Below are positions 833 through 23,712 of a DNA stretch of 64,000 nt, piece after piece (the first letter of the stretch is position 1; every line of letters starts with the position of its first letter). The stretch spans positions 24,747 to 88,746 of the forward strand of contig JBBRNK010000014.1 of NCBI GenBank assembly GCA_038230355.1, read 5' to 3'. Origin of the DNA: Mycobacteriales bacterium (GTDB taxonomy: Bacteria; Actinomycetota; Actinomycetes; Mycobacteriales; SCTD01). The notes beneath the pieces were generated by a model. The model saw only the letters and a program-made list of their open reading frames with translations, was not told where the DNA came from and did not search any database. Both the position numbers and the translations under genes were made by a program.

Positions 833-1324
833 TCAGACGACCTCGCGCAGGGTTCCCTTCGTGACGTCGTAGACGAAGCCGCGCACGGAGTCCTTCAGCG
901 GGATGGACGGCTCGGCGTGGATGCGCGCGATGCTCTGCCGCACGTCGATGTCGAGGTCGCTGAACGCCTCGGTCGACCAGGACGGCTTGATGCCGGTGTC
1001 GGCCAGGACGGCGGCCTTGAACTCGTCCTCGGTGAAGGTCAGCATCCCGCAGTCGGTGTGGTGGATCAGGACGATCTCCTTGGTGCCGAGCAGCCGCTGG
1101 CTGATCGCCAGCGAGCGGAGCTCGTCCTGAGTGATGACGCCACCGGCGTTGCGGATGACGTGGGCGTCGCCCTCCTGCAGCCCGAGCAGGCCGAAGGGGT
1201 TCAGCCTCGCGTCCATGCACGCGACGATGGCGATCTGCTTGGCCGGCGGCAGGGGCAGGTCACCCTTGTCGAAGCTGGCGGCATACGCCTCGGCGTTGCT
1301 GAGCAGCTGGTCGGTCACGGACAT
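833..1324 (-). CDS. beta-class carbonic anhydrase
   Basis: 163 aa. Zn-ligand motifs VACMDARL and HHTDCGM are present; size and layout match small actinobacterial beta-CAs. Confidence 0.9.
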   Translation of the reverse strand: MSVTDQLLSNAEAYAASFDKGDLPLPPAKQIAIVACMDARLNPFGLLGLQEGDAHVIRNAGGVITQDELRSLAISQRLLGTKEIVLIHHTDCGMLTFTEDEFKAAVLADTGIKPSWSTEAFSDLDIDVRQSIARIHAEPSIPLKDSVRGFVYDVTKGTLREVV

Positions 1325-1424: not shown

Positions 1425-2210
1425 TCAGCGAGCCCCGACCGCTGTCGCGCCACCGTCGACGGTGACGACCTCGCCGGTGGTCGCCGGGAACCAGGAGGAC
1501 AGCAGCATCACGGCGGCCTTCGCGATCGCCTCCGACGACGTGGCTGACGAGGCGTCCCAGCCGAGCGGTGCCCGGGCGGCGTACTCCTCGACCAGGCTGG
1601 TGTGGCCGGGAAGCGCGCGGGCGAGCAGGGTCACGACGGGTCCGCCGGCGACCAGGTTGACGCGGACACCACGCGGTCCGAGCTCGCGGGCCAGTGACCG
1701 CGCGGTGGCGGCGAGGGCCGCGTGCGAGACCTGGAGCCAGTCCGGGTCACCCCACACCTGGGAGGTGTTCTGGGTCAGACCGACGACCGCAGATCCTTTG
1801 ACCAGCAGGGGATCCAATGCATGGGCGACCGCCGCCAACGACCAGGCGGTCACTTCGAAAACCTGGCTGGCAAGCGACCAGGGGGTACCCGCGAAGGTGG
1901 TCGCGTCGAAGCCCTCCGGCAGGTAGCCGAGGGCGTGCACGACCCCGTCGACCCGGTCCCAGCCCGCCTCGCGCACGGCGTCGGCAAGCGCGTCGAGGTC
2001 CTGCTGGAGGGTGACGTCGAGCTCGAGCACCGGCTCGGCGACACCGAGCCGCGGTGCGACCCGGCTGGTGAGGCGGTGGGCGCGGCAGACCGGCGAGGTC
2101 AGCAGCACCTCGGCCCCCTCGGCGAGGGCCAGCCGCACGACCGCGCTGGCCAGGCTTGACTCGGTCAGGACGCCCGTCACGACCACCCGGCGCCCGGCCA
2201 GCAGGCTCAC
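1425..2210 (-). CDS. enoyl-ACP reductase (FabI/InhA)-like paralog lacking the catalytic Tyr and Lys
   Basis: 261 aa, collinear with the canonical FabI at 8204..8959 (VTGVLTESS N-terminus, ...FPATTGEVVTVDGG C-terminus). Where the canonical copy reads PGYDWMGVAK, this copy reads GDPDWLQVSH (Tyr->Pro, Lys->His). 4-nt overlap with the upstream ACP gene. Confidence 0.8.
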   Translation of the reverse strand: MSLLAGRRVVVTGVLTESSLASAVVRLALAEGAEVLLTSPVCRAHRLTSRVAPRLGVAEPVLELDVTLQQDLDALADAVREAGWDRVDGVVHALGYLPEGFDATTFAGTPWSLASQVFEVTAWSLAAVAHALDPLLVKGSAVVGLTQNTSQVWGDPDWLQVSHAALAATARSLARELGPRGVRVNLVAGGPVVTLLARALPGHTSLVEEYAARAPLGWDASSATSSEAIAKAAVMLLSSWFPATTGEVVTVDGGATAVGAR

Positions 2211-2470
2211 GACGAGGGCCGGTCAGCGACCTTGGCCGCCACGAGGTCCACGAAGGTCCCGAGGTGCCTGGTGCCCGCGATCTCGTCCTCGGGCAGGGAG
2301 ATCCCGAGAGCGTCCTCGACTGCCATGGCGAACTCGATGAGCGCGAGCGAGTCGACGCCGAGGTCGTCGACGAAGGACACGTCCTCGGCGAGCTCCTCGG
2401 GCGCCAGGTCGAGCAGGCTGACGGCCTGGTTGCGCACCACCTCGAGGACTGCCGCTCGCTCCACCCGCAC
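2207..2470 (-). CDS. acyl carrier protein (ACP-1)
   Basis: 87 aa, acidic, with phosphopantetheine attachment motif DDLGVDSLALIE. Confidence 0.9.
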   Translation of the reverse strand: MRVERAAVLEVVRNQAVSLLDLAPEELAEDVSFVDDLGVDSLALIEFAMAVEDALGISLPEDEIAGTRHLGTFVDLVAAKVADRPSS

Positions 2471-2478
2471 GACAGTAG

Positions 2479-3993
2479 TCAGCCCTTGGAGCCGATCGGC
2501 AGCCCCGCTGACTCGGCGTCGGCCAGAGCGGCGCGATCGAGCTTTCCGTTGGCATTGCGGGGGAGAGCTCCCAGGACCCGCAGTGGCCTCGGGACGGCGT
2601 GCGCCCCGAGCTCCTCCTGCACGTGACGACGCAACGCGGGCAGGTCCACCTCGACGCCGGGAAGGGCGACGACCGCGGCCGCGACGTTCTGCCCCGCGAC
2701 AGGGGACGGCACCCCGAACGCTCCCGCGTCGGCGAGCTGACCGCTGCCCATGAGGGCTCGCTCGACCTCCTGCGGGTAGACGTTGACCCCGCCACGCAGG
2801 ATCAGGTCGACGGCCCGACCAGCCAGCGACAGGTATCCGTCTGCGTTGAGCCGACCGAGGTCACCGGTCCGCAGCCACCCGTCCGAGGTGACTCGCAGCC
2901 GCTCCTGGTCACCCCAGTAGCCGGGGGTCACGACCGGCGACCTGACCCAGACCTCCCCGACCTCGCCCGCTAGGACGGCCCGATCGGTCCCGTCCACGAC
3001 CCTCAGCTCGGCGTAGGGGACGGCGCGGCCGACCGTCCCCGGCCGGTCGGCCCCGTCAGGCAGGTGCGTGACCGGGGCGCACGTCTCGGACAGGGCGTAG
3101 ACGTCATGCAGCTCGATCTTCGGGAGGGCGGCACGCACCCGGTCGAGCGTTCCTGCGGGGGCGGGGGCTCCGCCGTACACGGCGAGGCGCACAGCGGTGA
3201 GGGTCGCGAAGCCGTCGCAGCGCAGCAGGCCCTCCCAGATGCTCGGCACCACGTCCAGCCACGTCACTGCGTGCTCGCGGGCAGTCGCCACGAGCAGGGG
3301 CGCGGTGTAGTCCGCCATGGTCACCGCCGAGCCGCCGCTGTGCATCGCCGGGCCGAGCTGGGTGAGGTGGCCGGACACCCAGCTGAACGGCAGGTGGATC
3401 GCCGTCCGGTCGTCCGGCCCCAAGCCCAGTGCCGCGGCGTAGAACTCGGCGGCGTGACCGGCCATCCGCCCGGTGACGCGCACCGCCTTCGGCCTGCCCG
3501 TCGTCCCACTGGTGGGGATGAGCATGTACGTCGTGTCCTCGGCCGGCAGCTCCCCCCTCAGGTCCCACTGACGTGGTGCGGTGATCAGAACCCCTGCAGC
3601 GTCGGCGATCTCTCTTCCACCCAGGGTCCTGGCCAGCCCCGGCTGGGCGAGCACGACTGCCGGGTCCACCAGCTCGAGCAGCTCCTCGTGCCGCGCCCGC
3701 GGGGCGTCGACGGGCAGACCGACGAAGACCAGTCCGGCGCGGGCGCACGCCCAGATGGCGACAGCGCTCTCGAGCCCGTTGCGGGCGAGCAAGGCGACCC
3801 GGTCCCCTCGGCTGAGTCCGCTTCCGAGCAGCTGCGTGGCCGCGCCCTCGACCAGGTCCGCGAACTGCGCGTAGGTCACCGTGCGGCCGAGGGCAGGGTC
3901 CAGCAGCAAGGCCCGATCGGGCCAGGCCCTGCTCGCGGTGTCCAGGATCTCGACCACCGAGGTCGGCCTGGTCCCGAGCGGCCCCGCGGTCAT
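2479..3993 (-). CDS. AMP-dependent acyl ligase (acyl-CoA/acyl-ACP synthetase family)
   Basis: 504 aa. Adenylate-forming motifs TSGTTGRPKAV, YGGAPAP, GWLRTGDLG and a C-terminal NGKLDR. Confidence 0.85.
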   Translation of the reverse strand: MTAGPLGTRPTSVVEILDTASRAWPDRALLLDPALGRTVTYAQFADLVEGAATQLLGSGLSRGDRVALLARNGLESAVAIWACARAGLVFVGLPVDAPRARHEELLELVDPAVVLAQPGLARTLGGREIADAAGVLITAPRQWDLRGELPAEDTTYMLIPTSGTTGRPKAVRVTGRMAGHAAEFYAAALGLGPDDRTAIHLPFSWVSGHLTQLGPAMHSGGSAVTMADYTAPLLVATAREHAVTWLDVVPSIWEGLLRCDGFATLTAVRLAVYGGAPAPAGTLDRVRAALPKIELHDVYALSETCAPVTHLPDGADRPGTVGRAVPYAELRVVDGTDRAVLAGEVGEVWVRSPVVTPGYWGDQERLRVTSDGWLRTGDLGRLNADGYLSLAGRAVDLILRGGVNVYPQEVERALMGSGQLADAGAFGVPSPVAGQNVAAAVVALPGVEVDLPALRRHVQEELGAHAVPRPLRVLGALPRNANGKLDRAALADAESAGLPIGSKG

Positions 3994-5036
3994 GCGCGCA
4001 GGGCCTCCAGGGTGGCCGCACGGATGCCGGCGGCCTGGCTGTGCACCACCTGGAAGGCGGCCGCCCGGAGCAGCCGCTGGGCCGGGTCGGCCAAGTCCAT
4101 GCCTTGCCCGCCACGGGCCGTCAGCAGGGCCGTGGCGGACTCGATGCCCAGCAGCAGGGCTTGCGCGCGCGCGGCGAGCCGCTCGTCGTTGCGCTCGTTG
4201 AACGGGGCGGTGTCGAGGAGGTCGTAAGCGGTGGCCCGGACCGCGAGGACCCGCTCCCTCAGCGCCGCCGCCGTCTCCGGGGAGCGGACCTCGAGCAGGT
4301 CCAGCGCCGCCAGCGCGATCCCGAAGGTCGACGGCTGCACGTTGGTGTTGGCGGAGGCGTCGACGGCGAAGAAGTCCTTGTACGGCAGGAGGTTCAGCAC
4401 CTGGGAGGCTTTCATCCGGAGCCCGTCGAACGCGAGCGCGTGGGTGGAGGTGCCCCCCATCGCGGCGAGGTCCAGCAGGCCGGTGCTGCGCAGGCCGGCG
4501 CCCTCGCGGGCGGGCACGAGGCCGAAGACGATCTCGTCGGTCTCACGAACGACGGCACCCACCACGAGCACGTCGACCAGGCCCCAGCCGGTGCACCACG
4601 GCTGGGTACCGGTCAGGACGTAGGCGTCACCGTCTCGCTCGGCGAAGATGCTCGGCTTGGGCGTGCGGACGTGGCTGTAGGAGACCCCTCCCTGCACCGC
4701 CCCGCTGACCAGGTCTGCAAGGTAGGTCTCCCGGAGCGCCTGGTTGACGGTGCTCGCGACCATCTTCAGGACCGGGCCGTGCTGGAACCACACGAACCAC
4801 AGGTCCGGGCTGGCCCCGGCCAGCAACTCGATGACGGCCCGTTGCTCGTCGGTGCCGGCGCCCCCGAGCTCGACCGGGGCGTAGGTGCCGTAGAGCCCCG
4901 CCTGCGCCAGCATCTCGGTGTCGGCGCGCGTGACCCCTTCCCGCTCCAGCCGGGCGGCGTCGCCGACGAGCGCCTCCCGGAGCTCGGTGGCGCGGGTGAG
5001 CAGTATCCCGGGGGCAGTGGTGGCTGTGAGTGTCAC
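3990..5036 (-). CDS. acyl-CoA (or acyl-ACP) dehydrogenase family protein
   Basis: 348 aa with ACAD-like layout (N-terminal helical region, WCTGWG mid-domain, C-terminal helical bundle). 4-nt overlap with the ligase gene. Shorter than classical ACADs, and I could not see the usual C-terminal catalytic Glu context. Confidence 0.7.
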   Translation of the reverse strand: MTLTATTAPGILLTRATELREALVGDAARLEREGVTRADTEMLAQAGLYGTYAPVELGGAGTDEQRAVIELLAGASPDLWFVWFQHGPVLKMVASTVNQALRETYLADLVSGAVQGGVSYSHVRTPKPSIFAERDGDAYVLTGTQPWCTGWGLVDVLVVGAVVRETDEIVFGLVPAREGAGLRSTGLLDLAAMGGTSTHALAFDGLRMKASQVLNLLPYKDFFAVDASANTNVQPSTFGIALAALDLLEVRSPETAAALRERVLAVRATAYDLLDTAPFNERNDERLAARAQALLLGIESATALLTARGGQGMDLADPAQRLLRAAAFQVVHSQAAGIRAATLEALRA

Positions 5037-5073: not shown

Positions 5074-6246
5074 TCAGGGGGCCAGGACGATCGAGCCGTT
5101 GTGCCCGCCGAACCCGAAGCTGTTGCTCACGGTCGGGCCCGGCTCCCACGACCGGGGCGCGAGGACGACGTCGACCTCGAGGGAGGGGTCGACCTCGGTC
5201 GTGCCCATCGTCGGCGGCAGCTCGCGGTGGTGGAACGACAACAGCACGGCCGCTGCCTCCAGGGCGCCGGCCGCGCCCAGTCCGTGGCCGGTCACACCCT
5301 TGATCGATGTGACGGGCACCGCGCCCGGACCGAAGACGGTGGCGACAGCCTGAGCCTCCGCCTGGTCGTTCAGTGGGGTCGAGGTGCCGTGGGCGTTGAC
5401 GTGCCGCACCTGGTCGGGGGTGAGGCCGGCGTCGTCGAGGGCCAGCCGCATGCAGGCGGCCGCCCCGACCCCACCGGGGCTGGGAGCGGTGATGTGGTGG
5501 GCGTCGCAGGTCGACGCGGTGCCGACGATCTCGCCGTACACGTGGGCACCCCTGGCGAGGGCCTGCTCGCGCTCTTCCAGCAGCAGCACGCCGGCCCCTT
5601 CGGACAGGCAGAAGCCGTCCCGGCCGGTGTCGAAGGGGCGGCTGAGACCGGTCTCGGACAGCGCGGTCATCTTGGTGAACGCCCCCACGGTCACGCCGTT
5701 GACCGAGGCCTCGGCACCGCCGGCGAGCACGACGTCGCAACGCCCGTCGAAAATCATCCGGGCACCGGCACCGACGCTGTGCGTGCCCGCCGCGCAGGCG
5801 GTCGTCAGCGTTTCGCACGGGCCACGCCACCCCAGGCGGAGGCTGACCGAAGCGGCGCCCGCGTTGGGCATCACCATCGGGATCGTGAACGGCGAGACGC
5901 GACCCGGCCCGCGCTCCGCCAGCACCCCGCACTGCACCTGGAACGTGTTGATCCCGCCGATCCCGGTCCCGAGGCTGACCCCGGCGCGGTCCGGGTCGAG
6001 GTCAGGAAGGCCGCCGGCGGTCGCCATCTCGGCGGCCGCGATCGCGAAGTGCGTGAAGCGGTCGTGGTGGCGCTGCTCCTTCGGCGACAGCCACTGGCTG
6101 GCATCGAAGTCGTCGATAGTCCGGACGCGCCGCTGCCCCGGCTCGGTCTGCAGGCCCTTCCAGAACGCTTCGAGGCCGATGCCGGCCGGTGACACGACCC
6201 CGATGCCGGTGACGACGACGCGACGCGGGGGCGGGTAGGCCTTCAC
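5074..6246 (-). CDS. beta-ketoacyl-ACP synthase, elongating KAS I/II (FabF/KasA-like) type
   Basis: 390 aa, GTG start. Cys-His-His triad contexts are present: TTACAAGTHS, NAHGTSTP, KGVTGHGLGAAG. Confidence 0.9.
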   Translation of the reverse strand: MKAYPPPRRVVVTGIGVVSPAGIGLEAFWKGLQTEPGQRRVRTIDDFDASQWLSPKEQRHHDRFTHFAIAAAEMATAGGLPDLDPDRAGVSLGTGIGGINTFQVQCGVLAERGPGRVSPFTIPMVMPNAGAASVSLRLGWRGPCETLTTACAAGTHSVGAGARMIFDGRCDVVLAGGAEASVNGVTVGAFTKMTALSETGLSRPFDTGRDGFCLSEGAGVLLLEEREQALARGAHVYGEIVGTASTCDAHHITAPSPGGVGAAACMRLALDDAGLTPDQVRHVNAHGTSTPLNDQAEAQAVATVFGPGAVPVTSIKGVTGHGLGAAGALEAAAVLLSFHHRELPPTMGTTEVDPSLEVDVVLAPRSWEPGPTVSNSFGFGGHNGSIVLAP

Positions 6247-6297
6247 GGCACCGAGCCTACGTCCGGGATACGGCGCCGGGTGGGGCAGGATCTCCGG

Positions 6298-7179
6298 ATG
6301 CGCACCGCTCTCGTGTTCCCCGGGCAGGGATCGCAGCGTCCCGGCATGGGCGCCGCGTGGACCTCGACCCCCGGCTGGTCCCTCGTCGCCGAGGCCTCCG
6401 CAGCCCTGGACCGCGACCTGTCGTGGTTGCTGCTGGAGGCCGACGCCGAGCAGCTGCGCCAGACGAGGGAGGCTCAGGTCGCGACGTTCCTCGTGTCCCT
6501 GCTCGCCCTACGGGCCCTGCCGGAACTCGTCGTGAACAACGTCACGGTAGTCGCCGGTCACTCGCTCGGGGAGTACACGGCACTGGTCGCCGCCGGGGTC
6601 CTGTCCGAGGCTGACGGCCTCCGGCTGGTGGCCGAGCGCGGGGAGGCCATGCAGGTCGCCGCCGAGGCTGCGCCGGGGACGATGGCAGCTGTGTTGGGCC
6701 TGCCCGACGAGCAAGTGGCCGCGGCCTGTCCCGACGGAGTGTGGGTCGCCAACCTCAACGCCCCGAGCCATGTCGTGGTCTCGGGCGGGGTCCCGGCAAT
6801 GGCCGGGGCAGCAGACCTCCTGAAGGCCGCCGGAGCCCGCCGCGTCCTGCCGCTGCCGGTCGGTGGCGCCTTCCACACCCCGCTCATGGCGCCGGCCCGG
6901 GAGCGCCTCGACCGCGCCCTCTCGCAAGCGGTGTACGCCGCGCCGACGCTGCCCGTCCTCGCCAACGTGACCGCTTCCCCGTACCCGACAGGGGTTGCCG
7001 CCCTGCTGTCCGAGCAGCTGACCGCGCCCGTCCGCTGGCGACAGACGCTGGAGGCCCTCGACGTCGACCGGGTCGTCGAGGTCGGGCCCGGAGGTGTGCT
7101 CACCGGCCTGGTGAAGCGAACCCGGTCCGACCTGGCCGCTGGCAGCGTCACGACCCCAGCCGACCTGGCGGCGCTGTGA
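6298..7179 (+). CDS. fabD: malonyl-CoA:ACP transacylase
   Basis: MRTALVFPGQGSQRPGMG N-terminus and active-site GHSLGEYTAL. The ORF is also open from GTG 6280; ATG 6298 is preferred because a GGGGCAGGA purine tract lies 7 nt upstream. Confidence 0.9.
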   Translation: MRTALVFPGQGSQRPGMGAAWTSTPGWSLVAEASAALDRDLSWLLLEADAEQLRQTREAQVATFLVSLLALRALPELVVNNVTVVAGHSLGEYTALVAAGVLSEADGLRLVAERGEAMQVAAEAAPGTMAAVLGLPDEQVAAACPDGVWVANLNAPSHVVVSGGVPAMAGAADLLKAAGARRVLPLPVGGAFHTPLMAPARERLDRALSQAVYAAPTLPVLANVTASPYPTGVAALLSEQLTAPVRWRQTLEALDVDRVVEVGPGGVLTGLVKRTRSDLAAGSVTTPADLAAL

Positions 7180-7904
7180 CCGCCGATCCGAGCACCGCGA
7201 CCCCGAGCCGCTCGGTGCTCGTCACCGGTGGCAACCGCGGCATCGGGCTGGCGACGGCCCGGATGCTGGCAGCCCAGGGGCACCGGGTCGCCGTGACCTA
7301 CCGGTCCACGGTCCCTGAGGGCCTGTTCGGGGTGCGTTGCGACGTGACCTCGACGGCCGAGGTCGACGCGGCCTTCACCGAGGTCGAGGCTGCCCACGGG
7401 CCGGTCGAGGTGCTGGTCTCGAACGCCGGCCTGACCGACGACGGCCTGCTGCTGCGGATGTCCGAGGCGTCCTTCACTCGCGTGCTCGACGCCAACCTCA
7501 CGGGCGCCTACCGGGTCGCGAAGCGGGCCTCCCGGGGAATGCTCCGGGCCCGGTGGGGGCGCCTGGTGTTCGTGTCCTCCGTCGTGGGGCTGTCCGGCGC
7601 GGCGGGGCAGGCCAACTACGCCGCGTCCAAGGCGGGGCTCGTCGGGCTGGCGAGGTCGTTGGCGCGCGAGCTGGGGGGCCGGGGCATCACCTCCAACGTC
7701 GTGGCGCCGGGCTATGTCGACACCGACATGACCGCGGCGCTCAGTGAGGCACGCAGGACCGAGCTGCTGACGACGATCCCCGCCGGGCGGACCGCCACTG
7801 CGGACGAGATCGCCACCGTCATCGCCTTCCTGGCCGGCGACGGAGCGGCCTACGTCAACGGGGCCGTCCTACCCGTGGACGGTGGGCTCGGGATGGGGCA
7901 CTGA
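7176..7904 (+). CDS. fabG: 3-oxoacyl-ACP reductase (MabA/FabG1-like)
   Basis: GTG start in a GTGA overlap with fabD. SVLVTGGNRGIG, NYAASKAG and a PVDGGLGMGH C-terminus; closely resembles mycobacterial MabA end to end. Confidence 0.9.
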   Translation: MTADPSTATPSRSVLVTGGNRGIGLATARMLAAQGHRVAVTYRSTVPEGLFGVRCDVTSTAEVDAAFTEVEAAHGPVEVLVSNAGLTDDGLLLRMSEASFTRVLDANLTGAYRVAKRASRGMLRARWGRLVFVSSVVGLSGAAGQANYAASKAGLVGLARSLARELGGRGITSNVVAPGYVDTDMTAALSEARRTELLTTIPAGRTATADEIATVIAFLAGDGAAYVNGAVLPVDGGLGMGH

Positions 7905-7957
7905 CCCGCGCAGCCGCGTCCCGACCTCGATCGGCTGAGGCCGGATACGCTGCCGAC

Positions 7958-8203
7958 ATGGAACGCGCAGAGGTGTTGCAGGTCATGCGTGACAAGGCCG
8001 TCGAGATGCTCGAGGTCGAGGCTGACGCGGTGCAGGAGGACAAGTCGTTCGTCGATGACCTCGAGGTCGACTCGCTCTCGCTGGTGGAGTACACGATGGA
8101 GCTCGAGGACTCCCTCGGCGTCGAGCTGCCCGAGGATGAGTTGACCGACCTCACGACGATCGGCGCCTTCCTGGACCTGATCATGACCAAGGTCCCCGCG
8201 TAG
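7958..8203 (+). CDS. acyl carrier protein (ACP-2)
   Basis: 81 aa, acidic, with DDLEVDSLSLVE attachment motif. Confidence 0.9.
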   Translation: MERAEVLQVMRDKAVEMLEVEADAVQEDKSFVDDLEVDSLSLVEYTMELEDSLGVELPEDELTDLTTIGAFLDLIMTKVPA

Positions 8204-8959
8204 GTGCTGCTGGCCGGAAAGCGGTTGCTGGTGACGGGGGTCCTCACCGAGGCGAGCATCGCCTTCTCGGTCGCCCGGCTGGCTGCTGAGCAGGGAGCCG
8301 ACGTCGTGCTGTCCGGCTTCGGCCGCGCGCTGTCGCTGACCCGGCGGGTCGCCCGGCGACTGCCCGGCGACCTGCCGGTGGTCGAGCTCGACGTGACGAG
8401 CGAGGCCGACCTCGCCGCGGTGCCCGAGCGGGTCGGAGGACGGCTCGACGGGGTCCTGCACGCCATCGGGTTCGCGCCGGCGTCAGCCCTCGGGTCTGGC
8501 CTGCTCGACACCCCCTGGGCGGACGTCGGCACAGCTCTGCACGTGTCGACCTGGTCCTACGCAGCGTTGGCGCGCGCCTGCGCGCCCCTGATGCCTCCTG
8601 GCTCGTCCTACGTCGGGCTCGACTTCGACGCGCGCGTGGCATGGCCGGGCTACGACTGGATGGGCGTCGCGAAGGCCGGCCTGGAGAGCGCCAACCGTTA
8701 CCTGGCAAGGGATCTGGGCGTACGCGGGATCCGCAGCAACCTCATCGCCGCGGGGCCGGTCAAGACGATGGCCGCCAAGAGCGTCCCCGGCTTCGAGCAG
8801 TTCGAGGCCGTCTGGGACGAGCGGGCGCCCCTCGGTTGGGACGTCACCGACGCCGAGCCCGTCGCCCAGGCCTGCGTGGCCCTGCTCTCGGACTGGTTCC
8901 CCGCGACGACCGGAACCATCGTGCACGTCGACGGCGGCTTCTCGGCGGTCGGCGCATGA
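8204..8959 (+). CDS. fabI: NADH-dependent enoyl-ACP reductase (FabI/InhA type), catalytically intact
   Basis: 251 aa. GTG start abuts the ACP stop. Y-x6-K motif is intact in PGYDWMGVAKAGLES; AAGPVKT is present. Confidence 0.9.
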   Translation: MLLAGKRLLVTGVLTEASIAFSVARLAAEQGADVVLSGFGRALSLTRRVARRLPGDLPVVELDVTSEADLAAVPERVGGRLDGVLHAIGFAPASALGSGLLDTPWADVGTALHVSTWSYAALARACAPLMPPGSSYVGLDFDARVAWPGYDWMGVAKAGLESANRYLARDLGVRGIRSNLIAAGPVKTMAAKSVPGFEQFEAVWDERAPLGWDVTDAEPVAQACVALLSDWFPATTGTIVHVDGGFSAVGA

Positions 8960-9729
8960 GCACCTGGCGGCTCACCGACGCCGACTGGAACTCCTGGCCC
9001 GACGGCCTTTCCGGACCCGACCACGTCCGGCAGACCGCCGCCCTCGGTCTCGAGGGCGTCGAGCTGGGGGTTTACGACGCCTCCGTCGAGCTCGCCCCGG
9101 AGCGGCTGGCCGCGCTGCCGTCCGACGTGCCCGTCACCGACGTGCTGCTGTCGCTGACGGTCGAGCGCTGGCCAGGCGGCGCCCTGTCCGGTGACGTGGA
9201 CCGGCTCGTGACGCAGGTGCGCGCCTGCGCGGACGTCTGCCGCTCGATGGGGCTTCCCGTCCTCGGGCTCTGGCCCGGTGCCGACCCCATCGGCGCCGAC
9301 GTCGTCGAGGGAGCTCGGCGGGTCGTCGAGGCGGCCGGCGATGTCCGCGTCGCCCTCGAGTACAAGCCCGGCACAGCCGTCGAGACCGCATCGGACGCCC
9401 TCGCTCTGTGCGGGCGGGTCCCGGGCCTCGGGGTCCTGCTCGACACCGGCCACGCCTACGCAGCCGGGGAGGACCCGGCGCAGGTCGTCGACGCCCTCGC
9501 AGACCTGCTCCTGCACTGCCACCTTGGCGATGCCGACCTCGGCGGCAGCGACGACGACCTGCCCTGCGGCAGGGTGCACGACCTGAGCTCGTTCGTGGCC
9601 GCTCTCGACGCCTCGGGCTTTCGGGGCACCGCCTCCTTCGACCTGTACGGCGCGGTCGTGGCCGGGCTTGCCACCGGCCGGGAGGCCGTGCGGGAGAGCC
9701 GCGACCACGTTCTGTCGAGGCGGGTGTGA
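8956..9729 (+). CDS. sugar phosphate isomerase/epimerase (xylose-isomerase-like TIM barrel)
   Basis: ATG in an ATGA overlap with the fabI stop. Motifs VALEYKPG, LLDTGHA and HCHLGD are typical of AP_endonuc_2-type TIM barrels. Confidence 0.75.
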   Translation: MSTWRLTDADWNSWPDGLSGPDHVRQTAALGLEGVELGVYDASVELAPERLAALPSDVPVTDVLLSLTVERWPGGALSGDVDRLVTQVRACADVCRSMGLPVLGLWPGADPIGADVVEGARRVVEAAGDVRVALEYKPGTAVETASDALALCGRVPGLGVLLDTGHAYAAGEDPAQVVDALADLLLHCHLGDADLGGSDDDLPCGRVHDLSSFVAALDASGFRGTASFDLYGAVVAGLATGREAVRESRDHVLSRRV

Positions 9730-10679
9730 GGGCGGTCGTCGCCCACGGTCCCGGCGACTTCCGCCTCGAGAACCTTGACGACCCGGACGCCCCCGCCGGC
9801 GGCCTGCTGGTCCGGGTCGAGGCCACCGGGGTCTGTGCGGCCGACCGAATGCTCTGGACCGGCCGCCATCCCTGGGGCGAGCTTTCGTGGCCGTTCACGC
9901 CGGGCCACGAGGTGGTCGGGACGGTCGTCGCCGGCCGCCTGCCGGTCGGGACGAGGGTGACCGCGGAGGTCAAGCTGCCCTGCGGCTCCTGTGCGTTCTG
10001 CGCCCGTGACGAGCAGCACCTGTGCCCGCACGGCCTGCATCTGGGCAGCGGGATCCCCGGCGGCTTCGCCGAGCTGCTCGCCCTGCCGCCGGCAGCGAGG
10101 GTGCACGAGGTACCCCTGACGCTCACCCTCGAGCAAGCCGTGCTCGCCGAACCGATGGCCTGCGCGCTGCACGCGGTCCGACGGGCCGGCGTGCGCGACG
10201 GCGACCGGGTCCTCGTCGCAGGCCTCGGAGGTCTCGGGGCGCTAGCCGTCACCGCGGCCCGCCACGCGGGAGCTGCGCGCGTAACGGCACTGGTGCGGAC
10301 CGACGAGAAGGCTCGGCTGGCAACCGATCTCGGCTACGACGACGTTGTGCGCCGGCCCACCGAGTCGTCGTACGACGTGGGGGTGGACGTGAGCGGGTCG
10401 GTCGACGCGGTCGCGGCCGTGCTGGCCGCCGTGAGGCCTGGGGGTCGGGTCGGCGCGTACGGCGTCTACGACCGGCCACTCGTGCTGGACCTGAACCAGC
10501 TGGGCGAGTTCGGCGAACGCTCCCTGGCCGGCGGGCACCTCGCTCCCAGCTGCTTCCCGGAAGCCATCGCCCTGCTCGCGCAGGTGCACGGCGTCGTCAC
10601 CGGCAGCCACCCCCTGGAGCGCGTCGCCGACGCGTTCGCCCCACGACCGCAGCGCATGAAGGAGATCGTGGTCCCGTGA
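9726..10679 (+). CDS. zinc-dependent medium-chain alcohol/polyol dehydrogenase
   Basis: GTGA overlap start. Catalytic-Zn context GVCAAD...GHEVVG, structural-Zn cluster CGSCAFCARDEQHLC, and nucleotide fold VAGLGGLG. Confidence 0.85.
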   Translation: MRAVVAHGPGDFRLENLDDPDAPAGGLLVRVEATGVCAADRMLWTGRHPWGELSWPFTPGHEVVGTVVAGRLPVGTRVTAEVKLPCGSCAFCARDEQHLCPHGLHLGSGIPGGFAELLALPPAARVHEVPLTLTLEQAVLAEPMACALHAVRRAGVRDGDRVLVAGLGGLGALAVTAARHAGAARVTALVRTDEKARLATDLGYDDVVRRPTESSYDVGVDVSGSVDAVAAVLAAVRPGGRVGAYGVYDRPLVLDLNQLGEFGERSLAGGHLAPSCFPEAIALLAQVHGVVTGSHPLERVADAFAPRPQRMKEIVVP

Positions 10680-11323
10680 CGCCCCGGCAAGCCGACCTCG
10701 TGGAGCAGCTCATCACCGTCGGCCGCAAGGCCGTGGCCGCAGGCATGGTCATCGGGTCCGGCGGCAACCTGTCGGCCCGCGAGCCCGGCAGTGACGAGTG
10801 CGTGGTGACCTGCTCCGGCTCGTGGCTCGACGAGCTGCGCCCAGAAGACTTCTCGGTGGTGGCGATCGATGACGGCACCGTCCGTGGCGGTCACCCGAAG
10901 CCAAGCAGCGAGGCGATGCTTCACCTGGCGACCTACCGGGTCCGGGCGGACGTGAACGCGGTGATCCACCTGCATCCGCAGACGTCGGTCCTGCTCGACG
11001 CCCTCGGCAAGGACATCCGGCTGCTGACGATCGACCACGCCTACTACGTCCGCGAGGTCCGCTCCACCCCCTTCATCCAGAGCGGTACCCCGGAGCTGGC
11101 GGAGGCCGGGGCCGCAGCCGTCGCCGACGGCTGCAACTGCGTGATCCTCGGCCACCACGGCTGCTCGGTCCTGGGCGAGACCGTCGAGCTCGCCCACAAG
11201 CGGGCCGCCAACCTCGAGGAGGCAGCGCGGGCCACCCTGACGATGCTGCAGCTCGGGGACACGACGACCGCCTGCCCCCCGGAGTACCTTGCCCGCGTGC
11301 GTGCCGGTGAGGGCTCGGTCTAG
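10676..11323 (+). CDS. class II (metal-dependent) aldolase/adducin-family protein
   Basis: GTGA overlap start. GSGGNLSAR, SSEAMLH, VIHLHP and GHHGCSVLG match the fuculose/ribulose-phosphate aldolase-epimerase family. Confidence 0.85.
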   Translation: MTPRQADLVEQLITVGRKAVAAGMVIGSGGNLSAREPGSDECVVTCSGSWLDELRPEDFSVVAIDDGTVRGGHPKPSSEAMLHLATYRVRADVNAVIHLHPQTSVLLDALGKDIRLLTIDHAYYVREVRSTPFIQSGTPELAEAGAAAVADGCNCVILGHHGCSVLGETVELAHKRAANLEEAARATLTMLQLGDTTTACPPEYLARVRAGEGSV

Positions 11324-12709: not shown

Positions 12710-13647
12710 AGGCCCTCGTCACGGCGGAGTTCACCGCCGAGGGAATCCGGCGTCTGGAGGCGCTGGGCTACACGGTCGACAGGGCCGGCTGGGGCATGAC
12801 CCGGCGGGCCCTCGACCGGGCACAGCTGGTTGCTGCCGCCGAGGGCGCCGAGCTCCTGGTGACCGAGATCGAAGTCGTCGACGCCGACGTCCTCGCGGCC
12901 CTGCCCGACCTCCTGCTCGTCGCGACGGCCCGGGGTGGACCGGTCAACGTCGACCTGGCGGCGTGCACTGCTCGCGGGATCCCCGTGCTGTTCACGCCAG
13001 GGCGCAACGCCGACTCGGTTGCCGACTTCGTGGTCGGCACCGTCCTGTCCCTGGTCCGCGGCATAGCAGCCTCCGAGCGGCACCTGCGCGACACCGGATG
13101 GAACGTCGACGACGAGCTGCCCTACCTGCACTTTCGGGGACCCGAGCTGTCCCAGCTGACGGTCGGGGTCGTGGGCAACGGCGCGATCGGGGTCCGCGTC
13201 GGGCAGCGGTTCCGCGACGGTTTCGGGACGACCGTCGTCGTCCACGACCCGGTGCAGGGCATCGGGCCGTCGCTCGGCGAGCTCGCCGACCAGGTCGACC
13301 TGCTGACCCTGCATTGCCCACGCTCGCCCGCGACCCGGGGCCTGGTCGACGCCGCCCTGCTGGACCGCCTCGGGCCGGGCTGGATCGTCAACACTGCCGG
13401 CGGCGGCATCGTCGACGAGCAGGCCCTGTGCGACGCCCTCGATGCGGGCACCTTGCGCGGCGCAGCCCTCGACGTCTTCAGCTCCGAGCCACTCCCCAGG
13501 GACAACCGCCTGCTCCGCACACCTGGGCTGCTGCTCACCCCTCACCTGGCGGGGGCGGCCGACGACGTCGTGCGCCATCACACTGACCTGATCGTCGCCG
13601 ACGTCGAGCGCTGGCACCGTGGCGAGCCCCTGCTGCACCGCGCCTGA
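12706..13647 (+). CDS. D-isomer-specific 2-hydroxyacid dehydrogenase family protein
   Basis: GTGA overlap start. GVVGNGAIGVRVG NAD fold, and catalytic His in LLLTPHLAGAA. Confidence 0.85.
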   Translation: MKALVTAEFTAEGIRRLEALGYTVDRAGWGMTRRALDRAQLVAAAEGAELLVTEIEVVDADVLAALPDLLLVATARGGPVNVDLAACTARGIPVLFTPGRNADSVADFVVGTVLSLVRGIAASERHLRDTGWNVDDELPYLHFRGPELSQLTVGVVGNGAIGVRVGQRFRDGFGTTVVVHDPVQGIGPSLGELADQVDLLTLHCPRSPATRGLVDAALLDRLGPGWIVNTAGGGIVDEQALCDALDAGTLRGAALDVFSSEPLPRDNRLLRTPGLLLTPHLAGAADDVVRHHTDLIVADVERWHRGEPLLHRA

Positions 13648-13731
13648 CCCGCTGAGCGGCACAAACGGCGGTGCATGCAACACTGGTCGTCACTCATTAC
13701 GGGCTATTCCGTACCGTCACCTAGGAGCCAC

Positions 13732-14952: not shown

Positions 14953-15013
14953 CCGCGTTCCCCGGGGACTGCGCATCGCCCTGCTGCTGAGTCCTGCGCT
15001 CGGCCTCGTCGGC

Positions 15014-19281: not shown

Positions 19282-19471
19282 GCGACACAACCTACTGTTC
19301 GCCGGCGCGCGACAGGGCCATGCTGGCGGGCGTCCGCCCTGGTCGAAGGCTGCCCCAACTGGCCGACGGACACAGACCGAGGAAAGTCCGCCCGGCGCCA
19401 CCTCCGCCGACCACGGGCAGGACAGAACCTTGCAGCAGTCCCAGCCAGGCCAGCCTGGGCCCAGCAAAGGC

Positions 19472-20745: not shown

Positions 20746-22161
20746 CTACCCCCCGAGCCGGGTCACGACATGCTTGACCCGGGTGTAGTCCCGCAGGCTG
20801 TACGCCGACAGGTCACTCCCCCAGCCGCTGCTTGCGTAGCCCCCGTGGGGCATCTCGCAGGCCAGCACCGAGTGGCAGTTCACCCAGACCGCACCGAAGT
20901 CGAGGGCCTTCGCGCAGCGGGCCGCGGCGCTCGCCGAGGTCGTCCAGACCGACGCCGCCAGGCCGTAGTCGGTGGCGGCCGCCGTACTCAGGGCTTCGGC
21001 CTCGTCGGCGACCTGCGTCACCGAGACGACCGGACCGAAGACCTCCTCGCGGGCCAGCTCGTCCTCGGGCCGCACGCCCACGACGACGGTTGGAGGGTAG
21101 AAGAAACCGGCCCGGTCCAGCGGCGCGCCACCGGCGACGACCTCGACGTGGGGGCCGCGGCGGTCGACCAGCCCGGCAACCCTGGCCAGCTGGCTCGCGT
21201 TGTTGAGGGCTCCGTAGTAGCCGCCCTCATCGGGGCCGCCGGTCCGCATGGCCTTGGCGCCGGCGGCCAGCCGCTCCACGAGGGCGTCGTGGATCCCCTC
21301 GGAGGCAAGGACTTTCGTCGCTGCCGTGCACGACTGACCTGCGTTGTAGTAGCCGATGTCGAGGATCCCCTGAACGGTCAGGTCGAGGTCGGCGTCGTCG
21401 AGGACGAGCACCGGAGCCTTGCCTCCGAGCTCGAGGTGCAGCCGCTTGAGTCCCACAGCCGAGGCCGCCACGACCTCGCGGCCGGCACGTACCGACCCGG
21501 TCAGGGCGACCATCGCCGGCACCGGGTGGCGGACCATCGCCTCACCCGTACCCCGGTTGCCGCAGACGACGTTGAGGACGCCGGGAGGCAGGTGCTCAGC
21601 GCCGAGCTCGGCCAGCATGAGCGGCGTGACCGGGGTCGTCTCGGCGCTCTTGAGGACCACGGTGTTGCCCGCCGCGACGGCGGGGGCCCACTTCCAGGTG
21701 GCCATCATGAGCGGGTAGTTCCAGGGCGTGATCTGCGCGACGACCCCGACCGGCTCGCGGCGCATCACGCTGGTGAAGCCGACGACGTACTCCCCGCTCG
21801 CAATGCCCTCAGGCGCCCTGGACTGCCCTGCGGCGGACCGGATCACATCCAGGACGTGAGGCATCTCGGCCCGCATCGCCTCCCGGGGCTTGCCGGTGTT
21901 GCGGCACTCGGCGTCGACGAACTCCTCGGCCCTGTCCTCGAGGGCCTGCGCCAGCCGGAGCAGGGCCAACATCCGCGCCGAGGGCGGGGTGTCCCGCCAG
22001 CCGGGGAAGGCGGCGGCAGCGGCGGCGAACGCTCCGTCGAGGTCCTCCGGGCCCGCCACCGGCGCGACGTCGTAGCCCCGTCCGGTTGCCGGGTCGAGGA
22101 TCTCGGTGGTCGCTGCGGCCAGGGGGGTCCGGCGAGATCCGCCGTAGAAGTGATGGAGCAC
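20746..22161 (-). CDS. NAD(P)-dependent aldehyde dehydrogenase
   Basis: 471 aa. ITPWNYP, ELGGKAP and catalytic Cys in NAGQSCTA. Confidence 0.9.
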   Translation of the reverse strand: MLHHFYGGSRRTPLAAATTEILDPATGRGYDVAPVAGPEDLDGAFAAAAAAFPGWRDTPPSARMLALLRLAQALEDRAEEFVDAECRNTGKPREAMRAEMPHVLDVIRSAAGQSRAPEGIASGEYVVGFTSVMRREPVGVVAQITPWNYPLMMATWKWAPAVAAGNTVVLKSAETTPVTPLMLAELGAEHLPPGVLNVVCGNRGTGEAMVRHPVPAMVALTGSVRAGREVVAASAVGLKRLHLELGGKAPVLVLDDADLDLTVQGILDIGYYNAGQSCTAATKVLASEGIHDALVERLAAGAKAMRTGGPDEGGYYGALNNASQLARVAGLVDRRGPHVEVVAGGAPLDRAGFFYPPTVVVGVRPEDELAREEVFGPVVSVTQVADEAEALSTAAATDYGLAASVWTTSASAAARCAKALDFGAVWVNCHSVLACEMPHGGYASSGWGSDLSAYSLRDYTRVKHVVTRLGG

Positions 22162-22170: not shown

Positions 22171-23712
22171 CTAGGTCCGGGCTCGCAGGGCCTGCTTGTC
22201 GGTCTTCCCGACGCCGTTGCGGGGGAGCGACTCGACCAGCTCGACGACCTTGGGGGCGGCGTAGTCGGCCATCCCCTCGCGGACCCACGCCCGCACCTCG
22301 GCAGGGGTCACGGGCGCACGCACGACGAGGTAGGCCGCGATGACCTCTCCCCCCAGCGCGTCGGGGATGCCGACAACGGCCGCGTCCTCGATGAGGGGGT
22401 GCCGTCGGAGCAGCTCCTCGAGCTCTGCCGAGAACACCTTCGTGCCACCGCGGTTGATCATGTCCTTGCTGCGGTCGAGGACCGTCACGAAGCCGTGCTC
22501 GCAGACCCGGACGATGTCGCCGGTGTCGAACCACCCGTCGATGATCGCGGCGGCGGTGGCCTCCCCGTCCCCTGCGTAGCCGGTCGTCACCAACGAGCCA
22601 CGCAGCCACAGCTCACCCGCTTCGCCTTCCCTGCAGGGCTTCCCGCTCTCGTCGCGGACCTCGGCCTGCATGCAGTCCAGTGGCCGGCCGACCGTCCCGG
22701 CGTGCTCGGCGAAGTCCTCGTCGCGCAGGATGCAGCCCGGCGAGTGCGTCTCGGACAAGCCATAGACGTCGTGCAGGCGCACGCCCGGCAGGGCAACCCG
22801 GAGCCCGTCCTGCAGGTCCAAGGGGAACGGCGCACCCCCGGCAGCCACCCGTGACAACCGTGGCAGGTCATCCAGGCCGGCCCGCAGGGCGAGCCGCCAC
22901 CAGCTCGGCACGGCGTAGGCCCAGGTGACGCCCTCCCGCCGCAGCAGCTCGACGTACTCGCGCGGACTCTGCGAGTCGACGAGCACCAACCGCGCACCGG
23001 CGAGCATCGCCGGCAGCACGTGGGCATGCATCGCCGAGATGTAATACATCGGAAACAGCACGGCCGTGACGTCGTCCGGGCCGAGGGACAGCACCCGCTG
23101 GTAGCTCATCCCGGAGTGCACCGACGCGCGATGCACGACCTGCGACGCCTTCGGCCGCCCCGTCGTCCCCGACGTGAACACCACCTGGTACGTCGCGTCC
23201 TCGGCAAGCCCCGACGGGCCTTCGGCCCAGGACCGCTCGGGTGCCTCCATCAGGACCGCCGCGAGCGGCTCGGCGCCCGAGAGGTGGTCCAGGAAGGGCT
23301 TGGACGCCAGCGTCAGCCGGGTCTTCATGTGCTCGACCATGTAGGACCATTGCGGCGGCGCGAGGCGGGTGTTCAGGCCCACCATCACACAGCCCACGCG
23401 GGCGCAGGCAAGCAGCAGCACGGCGAGGTCGACGGTGTTGCCACTTGCTACTGCGACGGCGACGCCGGGCTCTAGACCCCTGGCACGCAGGGAGTCGGCG
23501 GCGCGCTCGACCCGGTCGGCGAACTGCCGCCAGCTCAGGTGAAGGTCCCCGTCGGTCCAGCCCGGGCGGTCACCGTGCAGGCGCACCGCCCGGTCCAGGG
23601 CGTCGACGACGGTCGCCGGCCGTCGGGCGTACGACAGGGCAGGTGCACCAAGCCACTGCTCGATGGCGACCGGGTCGCCGGGTCGGTCGTCGAGGTCGTG
23701 GAGCGCTGCCAT
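22171..23712 (-). CDS. AMP-dependent synthetase/ligase
   Basis: 513 aa. FTSGTTGRPKAS, YGLSET, GWFDTGD and a C-terminal GKTDK. Confidence 0.85.
   Translation of the reverse strand: MAALHDLDDRPGDPVAIEQWLGAPALSYARRPATVVDALDRAVRLHGDRPGWTDGDLHLSWRQFADRVERAADSLRARGLEPGVAVAVASGNTVDLAVLLLACARVGCVMVGLNTRLAPPQWSYMVEHMKTRLTLASKPFLDHLSGAEPLAAVLMEAPERSWAEGPSGLAEDATYQVVFTSGTTGRPKASQVVHRASVHSGMSYQRVLSLGPDDVTAVLFPMYYISAMHAHVLPAMLAGARLVLVDSQSPREYVELLRREGVTWAYAVPSWWRLALRAGLDDLPRLSRVAAGGAPFPLDLQDGLRVALPGVRLHDVYGLSETHSPGCILRDEDFAEHAGTVGRPLDCMQAEVRDESGKPCREGEAGELWLRGSLVTTGYAGDGEATAAAIIDGWFDTGDIVRVCEHGFVTVLDRSKDMINRGGTKVFSAELEELLRRHPLIEDAAVVGIPDALGGEVIAAYLVVRAPVTPAEVRAWVREGMADYAAPKVVELVESLPRNGVGKTDKQALRART

Follow-up and report, generated by a model that had tools for sequence, protein, structure and literature searches.

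A clade of actinobacterial FabI/InhA-derived proteins that lacks the catalytic tyrosine and lysine and is encoded next to an acyl ligase

Introduction

The enoyl reductases FabI and InhA are among the best-studied antibacterial targets, and their Y-x6-K pair is treated as universal. According to a 2022 review, there are few signs of paralogy within the InhA family (PMC9260719). The stretch of DNA analysed here, a window of 64,000 nucleotides, encodes a canonical FabI and a second FabI/InhA-like protein (the target), in which a sequence-only reading had seen both catalytic residues replaced and for which it had offered three options: a pseudoenzyme partner, an NADH- or ACP-binding regulator, or an enzyme with a different chemistry. 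The locus raises the question of whether the replacement is real and selected and, if so, what a protein built on the enoyl reductase fold may be doing in this gene cluster.

Results

The target matched the enoyl-reductase type of the SDR Rossmann fold (PF13561, E = 5e-49), and its closest solved relative was InhA of M. tuberculosis (HMMER, E = 6e-47). It was 48% identical to the canonical FabI of the window (BLASTP, E = 5e-71), with an alignment that was ungapped from 'VVGL' through 'RVNLVAGGP'. The same gap-free register around the catalytic sites was obtained with BLAST, HMMER (against InhA) and MAFFT; InhA F149 corresponds to Q147 of the target (codon 1770-1772), Y158 to P156 (codon 1743-1745) and K165 to H163 (codon 1722-1724). 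These alignments confirmed the earlier reading of Y-x6-K as P-x6-H; the translation and the BLASTP alignment likewise bore out the changes of DF to TQ and of PVKT to PVVT, and the retention of the N-terminal VVVTGVLTESS and of FPATTGEVVTVDGG. The target has tyrosines only at positions 96 and 210 and lysines only at positions 138 and 231, none of them close to the catalytic positions; with no spare residue near the site and the gap-free alignments in agreement, a register error was ruled out.

The AF2 model of the target (pLDDT 84.1) had InhA as its top Foldseek fold match (TM 0.87-0.90, at 37-38% identity). Against the NCBIfam models, the target scored 264 bits for FabI (NF005908), under the 299-bit cut-off, and 203.4 bits for InhA (NF040631), under the 430-bit cut-off; the canonical FabI of the window scored 402.6 bits against NF005908, above the same cut-off.

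The target gene lies in a cluster of fatty acid synthesis-like genes (Table 1). The overlap of 4 nt between the target and ACP-1 that had been described was read directly in the DNA as GTGA, in which the ACP-1 stop codon (2207-2210) overlaps the GTG start of the target. Upstream, the stop region of the ACAD-fold gene overlaps the start of ligase-1 by 4 nt, and the first gene of this minus-strand operon encodes a FabF-like ketosynthase (KS) that scored 417 bits against NF005589, above the 387-bit cut-off. The top PDB match of ligase-1 was FadD13. Among the plus-strand genes, the FabD-like protein scored 257 bits against TIGR00128, for which the cut-off is 260.9 bits, and the GTG start of the FabG-like gene overlaps the fabD stop codon.

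Table 1. Features of the window around the target gene
Feature	Position	Strand	Basis or remark
Beta-carbonic anhydrase	833..1324		100 bp downstream of target
Target, FabI/InhA-derived protein without catalytic Tyr and Lys, 261 aa	1425..2210	-	GTG start; PF13561
ACP-1, 87 aa	2207..2470	-	PF00550, E = 1.3e-12; DSL phosphopantetheine site
Ligase-1, adenylate-forming acyl ligase, 504 aa	2479..3993	-	PF00501 and PF13193
ACAD-fold protein, 348 aa	3990..5036	-	Weak PF02771/PF02770 matches
FabF-like beta-ketoacyl-ACP synthase, 390 aa	5074..6246	-	PF00109 and PF02801
FabD-like malonyl-CoA:ACP transacylase	6280..7179	+	PF00698; divergent from KS operon
FabG-like SDR, 242 aa	7176..7904	+	Translation; L001 ortholog matches adh_short and KR
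ACP-2, 81 aa	7958..8203	+	PF00550, E = 1.7e-11
Canonical FabI with F, Y and K, 251 aa	8204..8959	+	NF005908; alignments
Aldehyde dehydrogenase	20746..22161	-	PF00171
Ligase-2, second acyl ligase, 513 aa	22171..23712	-	PF00501

The target is not the single odd paralog that it had been taken for but belongs to a whole conserved clade of 121 sequences. Both the Tyr, which stabilises the enolate and donates a proton, and the Lys were missing in 117 of these 121, and both were present in approximately 74 of the 80 representatives of other FabI clusters (50% identity) that formed the comparison set. When these 80 representatives were searched for more distant lineages without the pair, the only ones to deviate were P0209 (Q and A at the Tyr and Lys sites), P0258 (Tyr retained, Lys replaced by Thr) and a handful of sequences that look frameshifted. 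Loss of the catalytic pair is thus a clade-wide trait, beyond chance. The earlier reading had asked whether the P and H substitutions are conserved in orthologs; they are not, and the loss alone is conserved while the replacements differ across the clade. At the Y158 site, which has no Tyr in 119 of the 121 members, Q, L, A, P, H, S and M occur freely, with P or A in the subclade of at least 77% identity; the K165 site holds Q (51 members), R (42), H (24) or K (2), so that Q, R and H together account for 117 of the 121. The F149 and Y158 positions vary freely while the remainder of the protein is conserved, including the clade-specific invariant residues Cys42, Tyr96 (at InhA F97) and Leu97 and a lid segment, 'GP.(R/K)TLL', with its basic residues.

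In a neighbor-joining tree (Kimura distance), the clade was monophyletic, with a bootstrap value of 100/100, and nested within actinobacterial FabI diversity. At 50% identity, it collapses into one representative (433 bits; the next match had 202 bits), and at 90% identity it still divides into more than 100 clusters, whose members are conserved in length. Its sources are metagenomes and metagenome-assembled genomes (MAGs) only, of Frankiales/Mycobacteriales type. A scan of GTDB species representatives found no cultured host: there were five true family loci, all in MAGs, while a shared C-terminal motif accounted for the remaining 75, which held ordinary FabI genes. The literature searched held nothing relevant on FabI pseudoenzymes or paralogs without the catalytic residues, and the clade was undescribed in the literature and family libraries searched. 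We conclude that the target clade is a previously undescribed offshoot of actinobacterial FabI.

The dN/dS ratio of the target was 0.088 against its relative in L089 (L numbers denote family loci) and 0.19 against that in L001; for canonical FabI compared between the same two genomes, it was 0.17. The target is under purifying selection, like canonical FabI, and as judged by these sequence comparisons it is a functional, selected member of its clade.

The positions that contact NADH in InhA were examined in the 121 sequences. The Gx5SxA dinucleotide motif is present in the target and in the clade; G14, S20, A22, D64, G192 and P193 (InhA numbering; G13, S19, A21, D65, G190 and P191 of the target) are invariant, and V65 and T196 (V66 and T194 of the target) are almost so. 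With most of the contact positions checked kept invariant, the predicted cofactor pocket is retained. InhA K165 is the residue that holds the cofactor (PMC9260719). The invariant cofactor contacts, together with the restriction of the Lys site to hydrogen-bonding residues, suggest that the cofactor is used and is not merely structural.

Ligase-1 adjoins the FabI-like gene in every assessable family locus, its orthologs (62-72% identity) being adjacent in L001, L003-L010 and L089-L092. The ACAD-fold gene adjoins in 10 of the 12 assessable loci; in L006 and L092, the FabI-like gene and ligase-1 occur without an adjacent ACAD-like gene, so that the presence of the flavoprotein next door is not a strict requirement. 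In most loci the gene order is FabI-like, ACAD-like, ligase, with no ACP between. Of the five loci in which genes were called, four have gaps of 7-19 nt between the genes; the ACAD-like gene and the ligase gene share 4 nt. The coupling to an ACP gene noted for the target recurs in other family loci: an ACP lies directly upstream of the target gene or its ortholog in the window, L001, L089 and L091. KS orthologs are close to the module in L001, L008/L090 and L009. The suggestion that the target forms heterotetramers with the canonical FabI finds no support in the synteny, since a canonical FabI occurs within approximately 8-10 kb in 3 of the 12 loci counted (the window, L001 and L009), the ligase and the ACAD-fold protein being the neighbours instead. 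No conventional flavin-reductase Pfam family was found in any neighbourhood listed. The family loci occupy core-like chromosomal positions (aroA-rsgA, suf-ABC-F), not contexts like those of mobile biosynthetic gene clusters (BGCs).

More distant genes of the window also recur. Orthologs of the aldehyde dehydrogenase that are 75% identical occur in L009, L010 and L090, which makes it a recurrent neighbour of the module. Ligase-2 shares 67-72% identity with the ligase that L007, L010, L090 and L091 encode directly upstream of their FabI-like gene, and it is possible that ligase-2 is a distal member of the same conserved neighbourhood. The carbonic anhydrase neighbour was found elsewhere only in L089, the 94%-identical relative.

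The AF2 model of the ACAD-fold protein (pLDDT 93.9) matched IVD and SCAD in Foldseek (TM 0.70-0.82), and true ACADs ranked first. In HMM alignments, the position of the IVD catalytic Glu is a variable T231 and that of MCAD E376 is S333, so that neither canonical catalytic-base position holds a Glu. S121, W147 and T149, aligned with the ACAD motifs 'MSE' and 'WIT', are conserved; we take these sites to be flavin contacts. Among 37 members, the C-terminal domain matched PF08028, the DszC/SfnB type, in 22 and PF00441 in one; the PF08028 signal was weak (best E = 0.001). The top NCBIfam match was SfnB, also weak at 48 bits against a 430-bit cut-off, and RedW was a further weak match.

Discussion

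[quoted passage not shown] Of the options offered by the sequence-only reading, what found support is that the target is not a canonical reductase, that its NADH-site residues are kept and that it is under purifying selection; the FabI heterotetramer found none. It is probable that the target, while not a canonical reductase, is a functional cofactor-binding partner of the module in which it is encoded.

As to its role, we tentatively favour the view that the target is a former FAS-II enoyl reductase that has become an NAD(P)H-binding component of an acyl-tailoring module of ligase, ACP and flavoprotein, with a hydride-donor mechanism. The ligase would load an acid on the ACP, and the FabI-derived protein, with bound NAD(P)H, would hand a hydride to an acceptor without Tyr-assisted enolate chemistry. 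The likeliest acceptor would be the flavin of the neighbouring ACAD-fold protein, an arrangement like that of the reductase component in a two-component flavin system, and the reduced flavoprotein would next act on the acyl-ACP. The narrower proposition, that FabI was co-opted to serve a two-component flavoenzyme specific for acyl-ACP as its NAD(P)H:flavin reductase, is somewhat more doubtful. To our knowledge, no FabI-family protein is known to reduce flavin, and the proposed mechanism is therefore a matter of inference only; among the models matched, the target hit FabI and SDR models only and had no homology to known flavin-reductase families.

These features can be compared with those of known systems. 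Like FabI/InhA (EC 1.3.1.9), the target keeps Gx5SxA, D64/V65, P193/T196, 'RAPLGW' and the C-terminal 'W(F/L)PATTG..DGG' and has a similar length; however, the Y-x6-K pair and F149 are absent clade-wide, and the ligase and the ACAD-like protein are the fixed neighbours in place of fabG or the FAS-II core. BLVRB has an SDR-type fold and works without the classical Tyr-Lys pair. As a promiscuous NADPH-dependent reductase of FAD and FMN (PMC10461185), it may serve as a functional analogy for the flavin reduction proposed here; however, it is a eukaryotic, stand-alone enzyme from a different SDR branch, and its relation to the target is one of fold only.

Two-component monooxygenases of the DszC/SfnB/HsaA type each have a separate NAD(P)H:flavin reductase. 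The module may resemble them in that an ACAD-fold neighbour without the catalytic Glu, and with weak PF08028 and SfnB signals, is encoded in the same operon as a predicted NAD(P)H-binding protein. It differs in that the family matches are far under the cut-offs, Foldseek favours true ACADs and the presumed substrate is a ligase-loaded acyl-ACP; furthermore, the reductase partners known to us are all members of the Flavin_Reduct, SsuE or nitroreductase families, and none is a FabI. In the mycobactin mbt-2 module (the MbtM/FadD33 ligase, the MbtL ACP and the MbtN/FadE14 acyl-ACP dehydrogenase) and the prolyl-PCP dehydrogenase set of RedM, RedO and RedW, a ligase loads a dedicated carrier and an ACAD-fold enzyme modifies the tethered acyl group, and by analogy the module studied here may work in a similar way. 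Unlike the ACAD-fold protein of this module, however, those of mbt-2 and Red are true dehydrogenases, and no FabI-derived protein is known there. Noncatalytic paralogous partners are represented by KS/CLF of type II PKS, by HadA and HadC with HadB, and by the structural pseudo-KR subdomain. The target may be likened to these as a duplicate that has lost catalytic residues and is conserved; it differs from them in that its active paralog is usually not adjacent and its cofactor site is strictly conserved.

Such partners bring to mind a noncatalytic subunit: a scaffold, an acyl- or enoyl-ACP binder or a gatekeeper that needs NAD(H) for stability only and holds the ligase product or enters mixed tetramers with canonical FabI. 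Sites F149 and Y158 left free in an otherwise conserved protein are what is typically seen in pseudoenzymes, the target gene is translationally coupled to that of an ACP, and the window, L001 and L009 also carry a canonical FabI. FabI-ACP docking is the basis for a further analogy, by which the conserved lid and its basic residues could keep ACP binding. Nevertheless, a canonical FabI is near in only the three loci counted above, and the strict invariance of the cofactor contacts, with hydrogen-bonding residues at the Lys site, suggests cofactor use; we regard a purely noncatalytic role as unlikely, if a serious contender. Slightly less likely, in our estimation, is that the target is still an enoyl-thioester reductase, either slow or with a substrate that is reduced independently of Tyr, acting on the product that the ligase and ACAD-like steps would leave on the ACP. 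The fold is intact, as are the NADH pocket and T196, and the gene context is one of acyl-ACP. Parikh et al. reportedly found in 1999 that InhA K165Q and K165R were still active. The role of that Lys is in cofactor holding (PMC9260719). In InhA, kcat falls to 1.8% with Y158F and to 0.16% with Y158S (PMC6222099), so that residual enoyl reduction is possible. Against this, there is no fixed replacement at the Tyr site, P and A alternating even at 77% identity or more; the target scores under the curated FabI cut-off; the window already has a canonical FabI; and the neighbouring ACAD-like protein lacks a base for making an enoyl substrate.

That missing base also counts against a reductase without a proton donor, in which a C2-ene adduct of NADH and enoyl, or an enolate, on an ACP-bound substrate would be diverted to another electrophile, such as CO2. 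As a carboxylase, such an enzyme could supply alkylmalonyl-ACP to the adjacent KS, an SDR-fold counterpart of the MDR-fold crotonyl-CoA carboxylase/reductases. InhA Y158F, in which protonation is impaired, builds up a covalent C2-ene adduct (PMC6222099); in many clade members, the Y158, K165 and I194 sites have acquired side chains with an amide or imidazole group; and the cluster holds a KS, FabD and ACPs. However, the target subclade has P/A, H and V at these three sites, not the Q/H pattern, and the SDR superfamily offers no precedent. The carbonic anhydrase gene downstream of the target was considered as support and dropped, this adjacency being shared only with the 94%-identical relative in L089. 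We judge the idea very improbable. We give an equally slim chance to a thioester reductase like those of CAR or NRPS R domains, with aldehyde release, even though the translationally coupled order of ligase-1, ACP-1 and target in the window, L001 and L089 mimics A-T-R and a conserved aldehyde dehydrogenase recurs close by. R domains require their own Thr-Tyr-Lys triad, and the target has no Tyr or Lys available; its lineage is that of FabI and not of the extended-SDR R domains, and in most loci no ACP lies between the FabI-like, ACAD-like and ligase genes. The slightest chance of all goes to a pseudogene in decay, an ordinary FabI that was misaligned, or a decoy for an inhibitor. With both catalytic residues lost, decay suggests itself at first sight, and a gene cluster can carry an additional FabI as a resistance gene. 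Decay is nevertheless ruled out by dN/dS values of 0.09-0.19, at the level of canonical FabI, and by more than 100 clusters of conserved length, and the reading frame is unbroken; misalignment is countered by the agreement of three independent ungapped alignments. The loci also lie in core-like positions, not in contexts like those of mobile BGCs.

A selected clade without either residue but with the predicted NADH pocket preserved indicates that the scaffold has been reused for something else. Tied to this clade are a ligase, an ACP and an ACAD-fold protein that is just as "de-catalysed". If its function is resolved, the enoyl reductase family would gain a new activity or a new pseudoenzyme role, and a lineage-specific acyl-tailoring pathway would be added for abundant uncultured soil Actinomycetota. 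Some clade proteins are labelled "enoyl-ACP reductase FabI" or "meromycolic acid enoyl-ACP reductase" in their sources, and these labels are probably wrong.

Results

The FabI-like protein was assigned to the enoyl-reductase-type SDRs (PF13561, E = 5e-49), and its nearest solved relative is M. tuberculosis InhA (E = 6e-47). The sequence-only reading had claimed that Pro and His replace the catalytic Tyr and Lys and that the gene is coupled by 4 nt to the ACP-1 gene; all of its details were borne out. BLASTP alignment with the canonical FabI of the window (48% identity) was ungapped from 'VVGL' to 'RVNLVAGGP', and this alignment, HMMER alignment with InhA, and two MAFFT alignments agreed on one register, in which InhA F149, Y158, and K165 correspond to Q147 (codon 1770-1772), P156 (codon 1743-1745), and H163 (codon 1722-1724), respectively. 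The whole protein has two Tyr and two Lys residues, none close to the catalytic site. The GTGA overlap of its start with the ACP-1 stop codon is visible directly in the sequence. With 264 bits, it falls short of the 299-bit cut-off of the NCBI actinobacterial FabI model; the score of the canonical copy is 402.6 bits.

Features of the window
Feature	Coordinates	Strand	Remark
Beta-carbonic anhydrase	833-1324	(-)	100 bp downstream of FabI-like gene
FabI-like gene	1425..2210	(-)	GTG start, 261 aa
ACP-1	2207..2470	(-)	same operon
Ligase-1 (adenylate-forming)	2479..3993	(-)	same operon
ACAD-like	3990..5036	(-)	same operon, 348 aa
KS, FabF-like	5074..6246	(-)	same operon
FabD	6280..7179		divergent
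FabG	7176..7904		divergent
ACP-2	7958..8203	(+)	divergent
Canonical FabI	8204..8959	(+)	divergent; F/Y/K present
Sugar or polyol-type operon	8956-17624	(+)	directly after canonical FabI
PNP_UDP_1 phosphorylase family	18574-19467	(-)	
Aldehyde dehydrogenase	20746-22161	(-)	
Ligase-2 (second acyl ligase)	22171..23712	(-)	
tRNA-Ser (anticodon TGA)	25770-25859	(-)	
DabB-like/DabA ORF	25969-30129	(-)	1386 aa
Giant ORF	55078-63972	(-)	at least 2964 aa

The FabI-like group is a clade, not an oddity. Its best 120 homologs in a collection of 5.8 billion proteins are 59 to 94% identical to the window protein, the canonical FabI being more distant. Tyr and Lys are both missing from 117 of the 121 sequences (window protein included); two keep Tyr alone and two keep Lys alone. 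The Tyr site is occupied by Q (56), L (19), A (17), P (10), H (7), S (5), or M (3), with P and A alternating even at 77% identity or more to the window protein, and the Lys site is limited to Q (51), R (42), and H (24). Both residues are present in approximately 74 of 80 full-length representatives of other FabI clusters, where the exceptions are mostly frameshift-looking. A library clustered at 50% identity has one representative for the entire clade (433 bits; following match, 202 bits), and a neighbor-joining tree places it as a single group within actinobacterial FabI diversity (bootstrap, 100/100), with two sequences at its base that keep Lys and carry Trp for Tyr. All members come from uncultured organisms; when one genome was scanned for each GTDB species, only five clade loci appeared, all in MAGs labelled Frankiales or Actinomycetota.

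The gene is functional: dN/dS was 0.088 in the comparison with the 94%-identical ortholog, 0.19 with a 78% ortholog, and 0.17 for canonical FabI in the same genome pair. The cofactor contacts G14, S20, A22, D64, G192, and P193 (InhA numbering) are invariant in all 121 sequences, and V65 and T196 nearly so. The InhA residue K165 serves to hold the cofactor; Y158 has a role at the substrate carbonyl and in protonation (PMC9260719). InhA retains 1.8% of its kcat as Y158F and 0.16% as Y158S, and a covalent NADH-substrate adduct builds up in the Y158F mutant (PMC6222099). The free Tyr site, the hydrogen-bonding residue at the Lys site, and the fixed cofactor pocket argue that the clade would still need to bind a nicotinamide cofactor but not Tyr-assisted enoyl chemistry. 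An AF2 model (pLDDT 84.1, pTM 0.86) superposed on InhA with a TM score of 0.87 to 0.90. Clade-specific invariant residues are Cys42, Tyr96, and Leu97. Cys42 (codon 2085-2087) lies in the beta2-alpha2 adenine-ribose loop (motif 'SPVCR') and Tyr96 (codon 1923-1925) at InhA F97, close to the major portal; both occur in 121 of 121 clade sequences and are unfixed in canonical FabIs.

In the window, the FabI-like gene ends a minus-strand operon. The FabF-like KS, FabD, FabG, ACP-2, and canonical FabI constitute a FAS-II-like set (5074-8959, both strands), near which no FabH or dehydratase was found; the set accompanies the module again in L001 and, in part, in L008/L090 and L009. In independent loci from metagenomes and MAGs, a ligase-1 ortholog (62 to 72% identity) adjoins the clade gene wherever this could be assessed, and the ACAD-like gene does so in 10 of the 12 loci where its presence could be judged. 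The commonest order is FabI-like, ACAD-like, ligase-1. Of the five loci with this order and with gene calls, four have a gap of 7 to 19 nt after the FabI-like gene; a 4-nt overlap joins the ACAD-like and ligase genes. In the window, L001, L089, and L091, the gene immediately upstream of the FabI-like gene encodes an ACP, and a second ligase (approximately 40% identical to ligase-1; window ortholog, ligase-2) lies upstream in L007, L010, L090, and L091. The window, L001, and L009 are the only loci with a canonical FabI close by. The chromosomal setting is core-like, not mobile (aroA-rsgA-trk, or the suf operon and ABC-F). The carbonic anhydrase carries little weight, since only the 94%-identical relative shares it.

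Orthologs (52 to 75% identity) of the phosphorylase-family, aldehyde dehydrogenase, and ligase-2 genes (18574-23712) occur near the FabI-like gene in L004, L007, L009, L010, L090, and L091, which suggests that the conserved neighbourhood extends further. A recurrent feature directly upstream of the module is an ArsR-type HTH_5 regulator (L091, 7811-9727; L004, 9690-10007; L090, 7841-8173), in L091 called as a 638-aa fusion with ligase-2. L092 (5418-8774) represents the basal subfamily, in which Trp replaces Tyr and Lys is kept; its ligase-1 ortholog lies in divergent orientation to the FabI-like gene and overlaps a 343-aa 'BCD' (PF15461) protein, not an ACAD-like gene.

The ACAD-like family is as compact as the clade and has the same distribution of MAG and metagenome sources. 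Its confidently modelled fold is that of an ACAD (pLDDT 93.9); Foldseek matched it to IVD and SCAD (TM, 0.70 to 0.82; 16 to 22% identity). S121, W147, and T149 are invariant and align with the ACAD 'MSE' and 'WIT' motifs, presumably flavin contacts. The IVD-type catalytic Glu position holds a variable residue (T231), and the MCAD-type position an invariant S333 adjoining an invariant H332. The C-terminal domain gives weak matches to PF08028, a family of the DszC/SfnB type, in 22 of the 37 members examined, and one of the 37 matches PF00441; the top NCBIfam match, SfnB, is far under its cut-off. With Tyr and Lys lost from one protein and Glu from the other, both partners have lost the acid/base residues that alpha-carbon chemistry on thioesters requires, their cofactor sites apparently being kept.

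Discussion

We have demonstrated that a FabI-derived clade is conserved and selected without the catalytic pair and with an intact NADH pocket, and that it is fixed beside one ligase, usually with an ACAD-fold protein and an ACP as well. From these features, we infer that the window protein is not a FAS-II enoyl reductase; rather, it is predicted to bind NAD(P)H as part of a module that tailors acyl-ACP. Some members are labelled FabI or even 'meromycolic acid enoyl-ACP reductase' at source; no NCBIfam or Pfam family sets the clade apart, and literature searches found no description of FabI/InhA homologs without the catalytic pair. The clade is a clear, testable example of the repurposing of a textbook enzyme scaffold, its function being a prediction.

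Our tentative preference is that the protein would pass a hydride to an acceptor without needing to stabilise an enolate, the likeliest acceptor being the flavin of the ACAD-like partner. The fold of BLVRB is of the SDR type. This enzyme provides a precedent, reducing both FAD and FMN promiscuously with NADPH (PMC10461185), and no clade neighbourhood examined contains a conventional flavin reductase gene; however, the ACAD-like gene is absent from two loci, and its monooxygenase-type signals are weak.

A purely non-catalytic subunit binding acyl-ACP and NAD(H) is rather unlikely, if less so than a residual or specialised enoyl reductase, which we doubt. An adduct-forming or reductive-carboxylating enzyme is highly improbable, as is, to the same degree, a CAR-like thioester reductase. 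Decay, misalignment, or a decoy role, even taken together, is scarcely credible for a selected gene aligned in a single register.

Other features of the window

The sugar or polyol-type operon encodes a xylose-isomerase-like TIM barrel, Zn-ADH, class II aldolase, FGGY kinase, D-2-hydroxyacid dehydrogenase, and an ABC transporter; its aldolase and FGGY pair is also found in L001 and L009. The tRNA-Ser gene is the sole RNA gene detected in the window. A Proton_antipo_M (DabB-like) region and a complete DabA inorganic-carbon-transporter domain share a single ORF, which could be a fusion or could represent two genes taken as one. The giant ORF lies where GC skew is strong and extends almost to the window end; it contains SdrD_B, Big_9, cadherin-like, and CarboxypepD_reg repeats and presumably encodes a surface adhesin.
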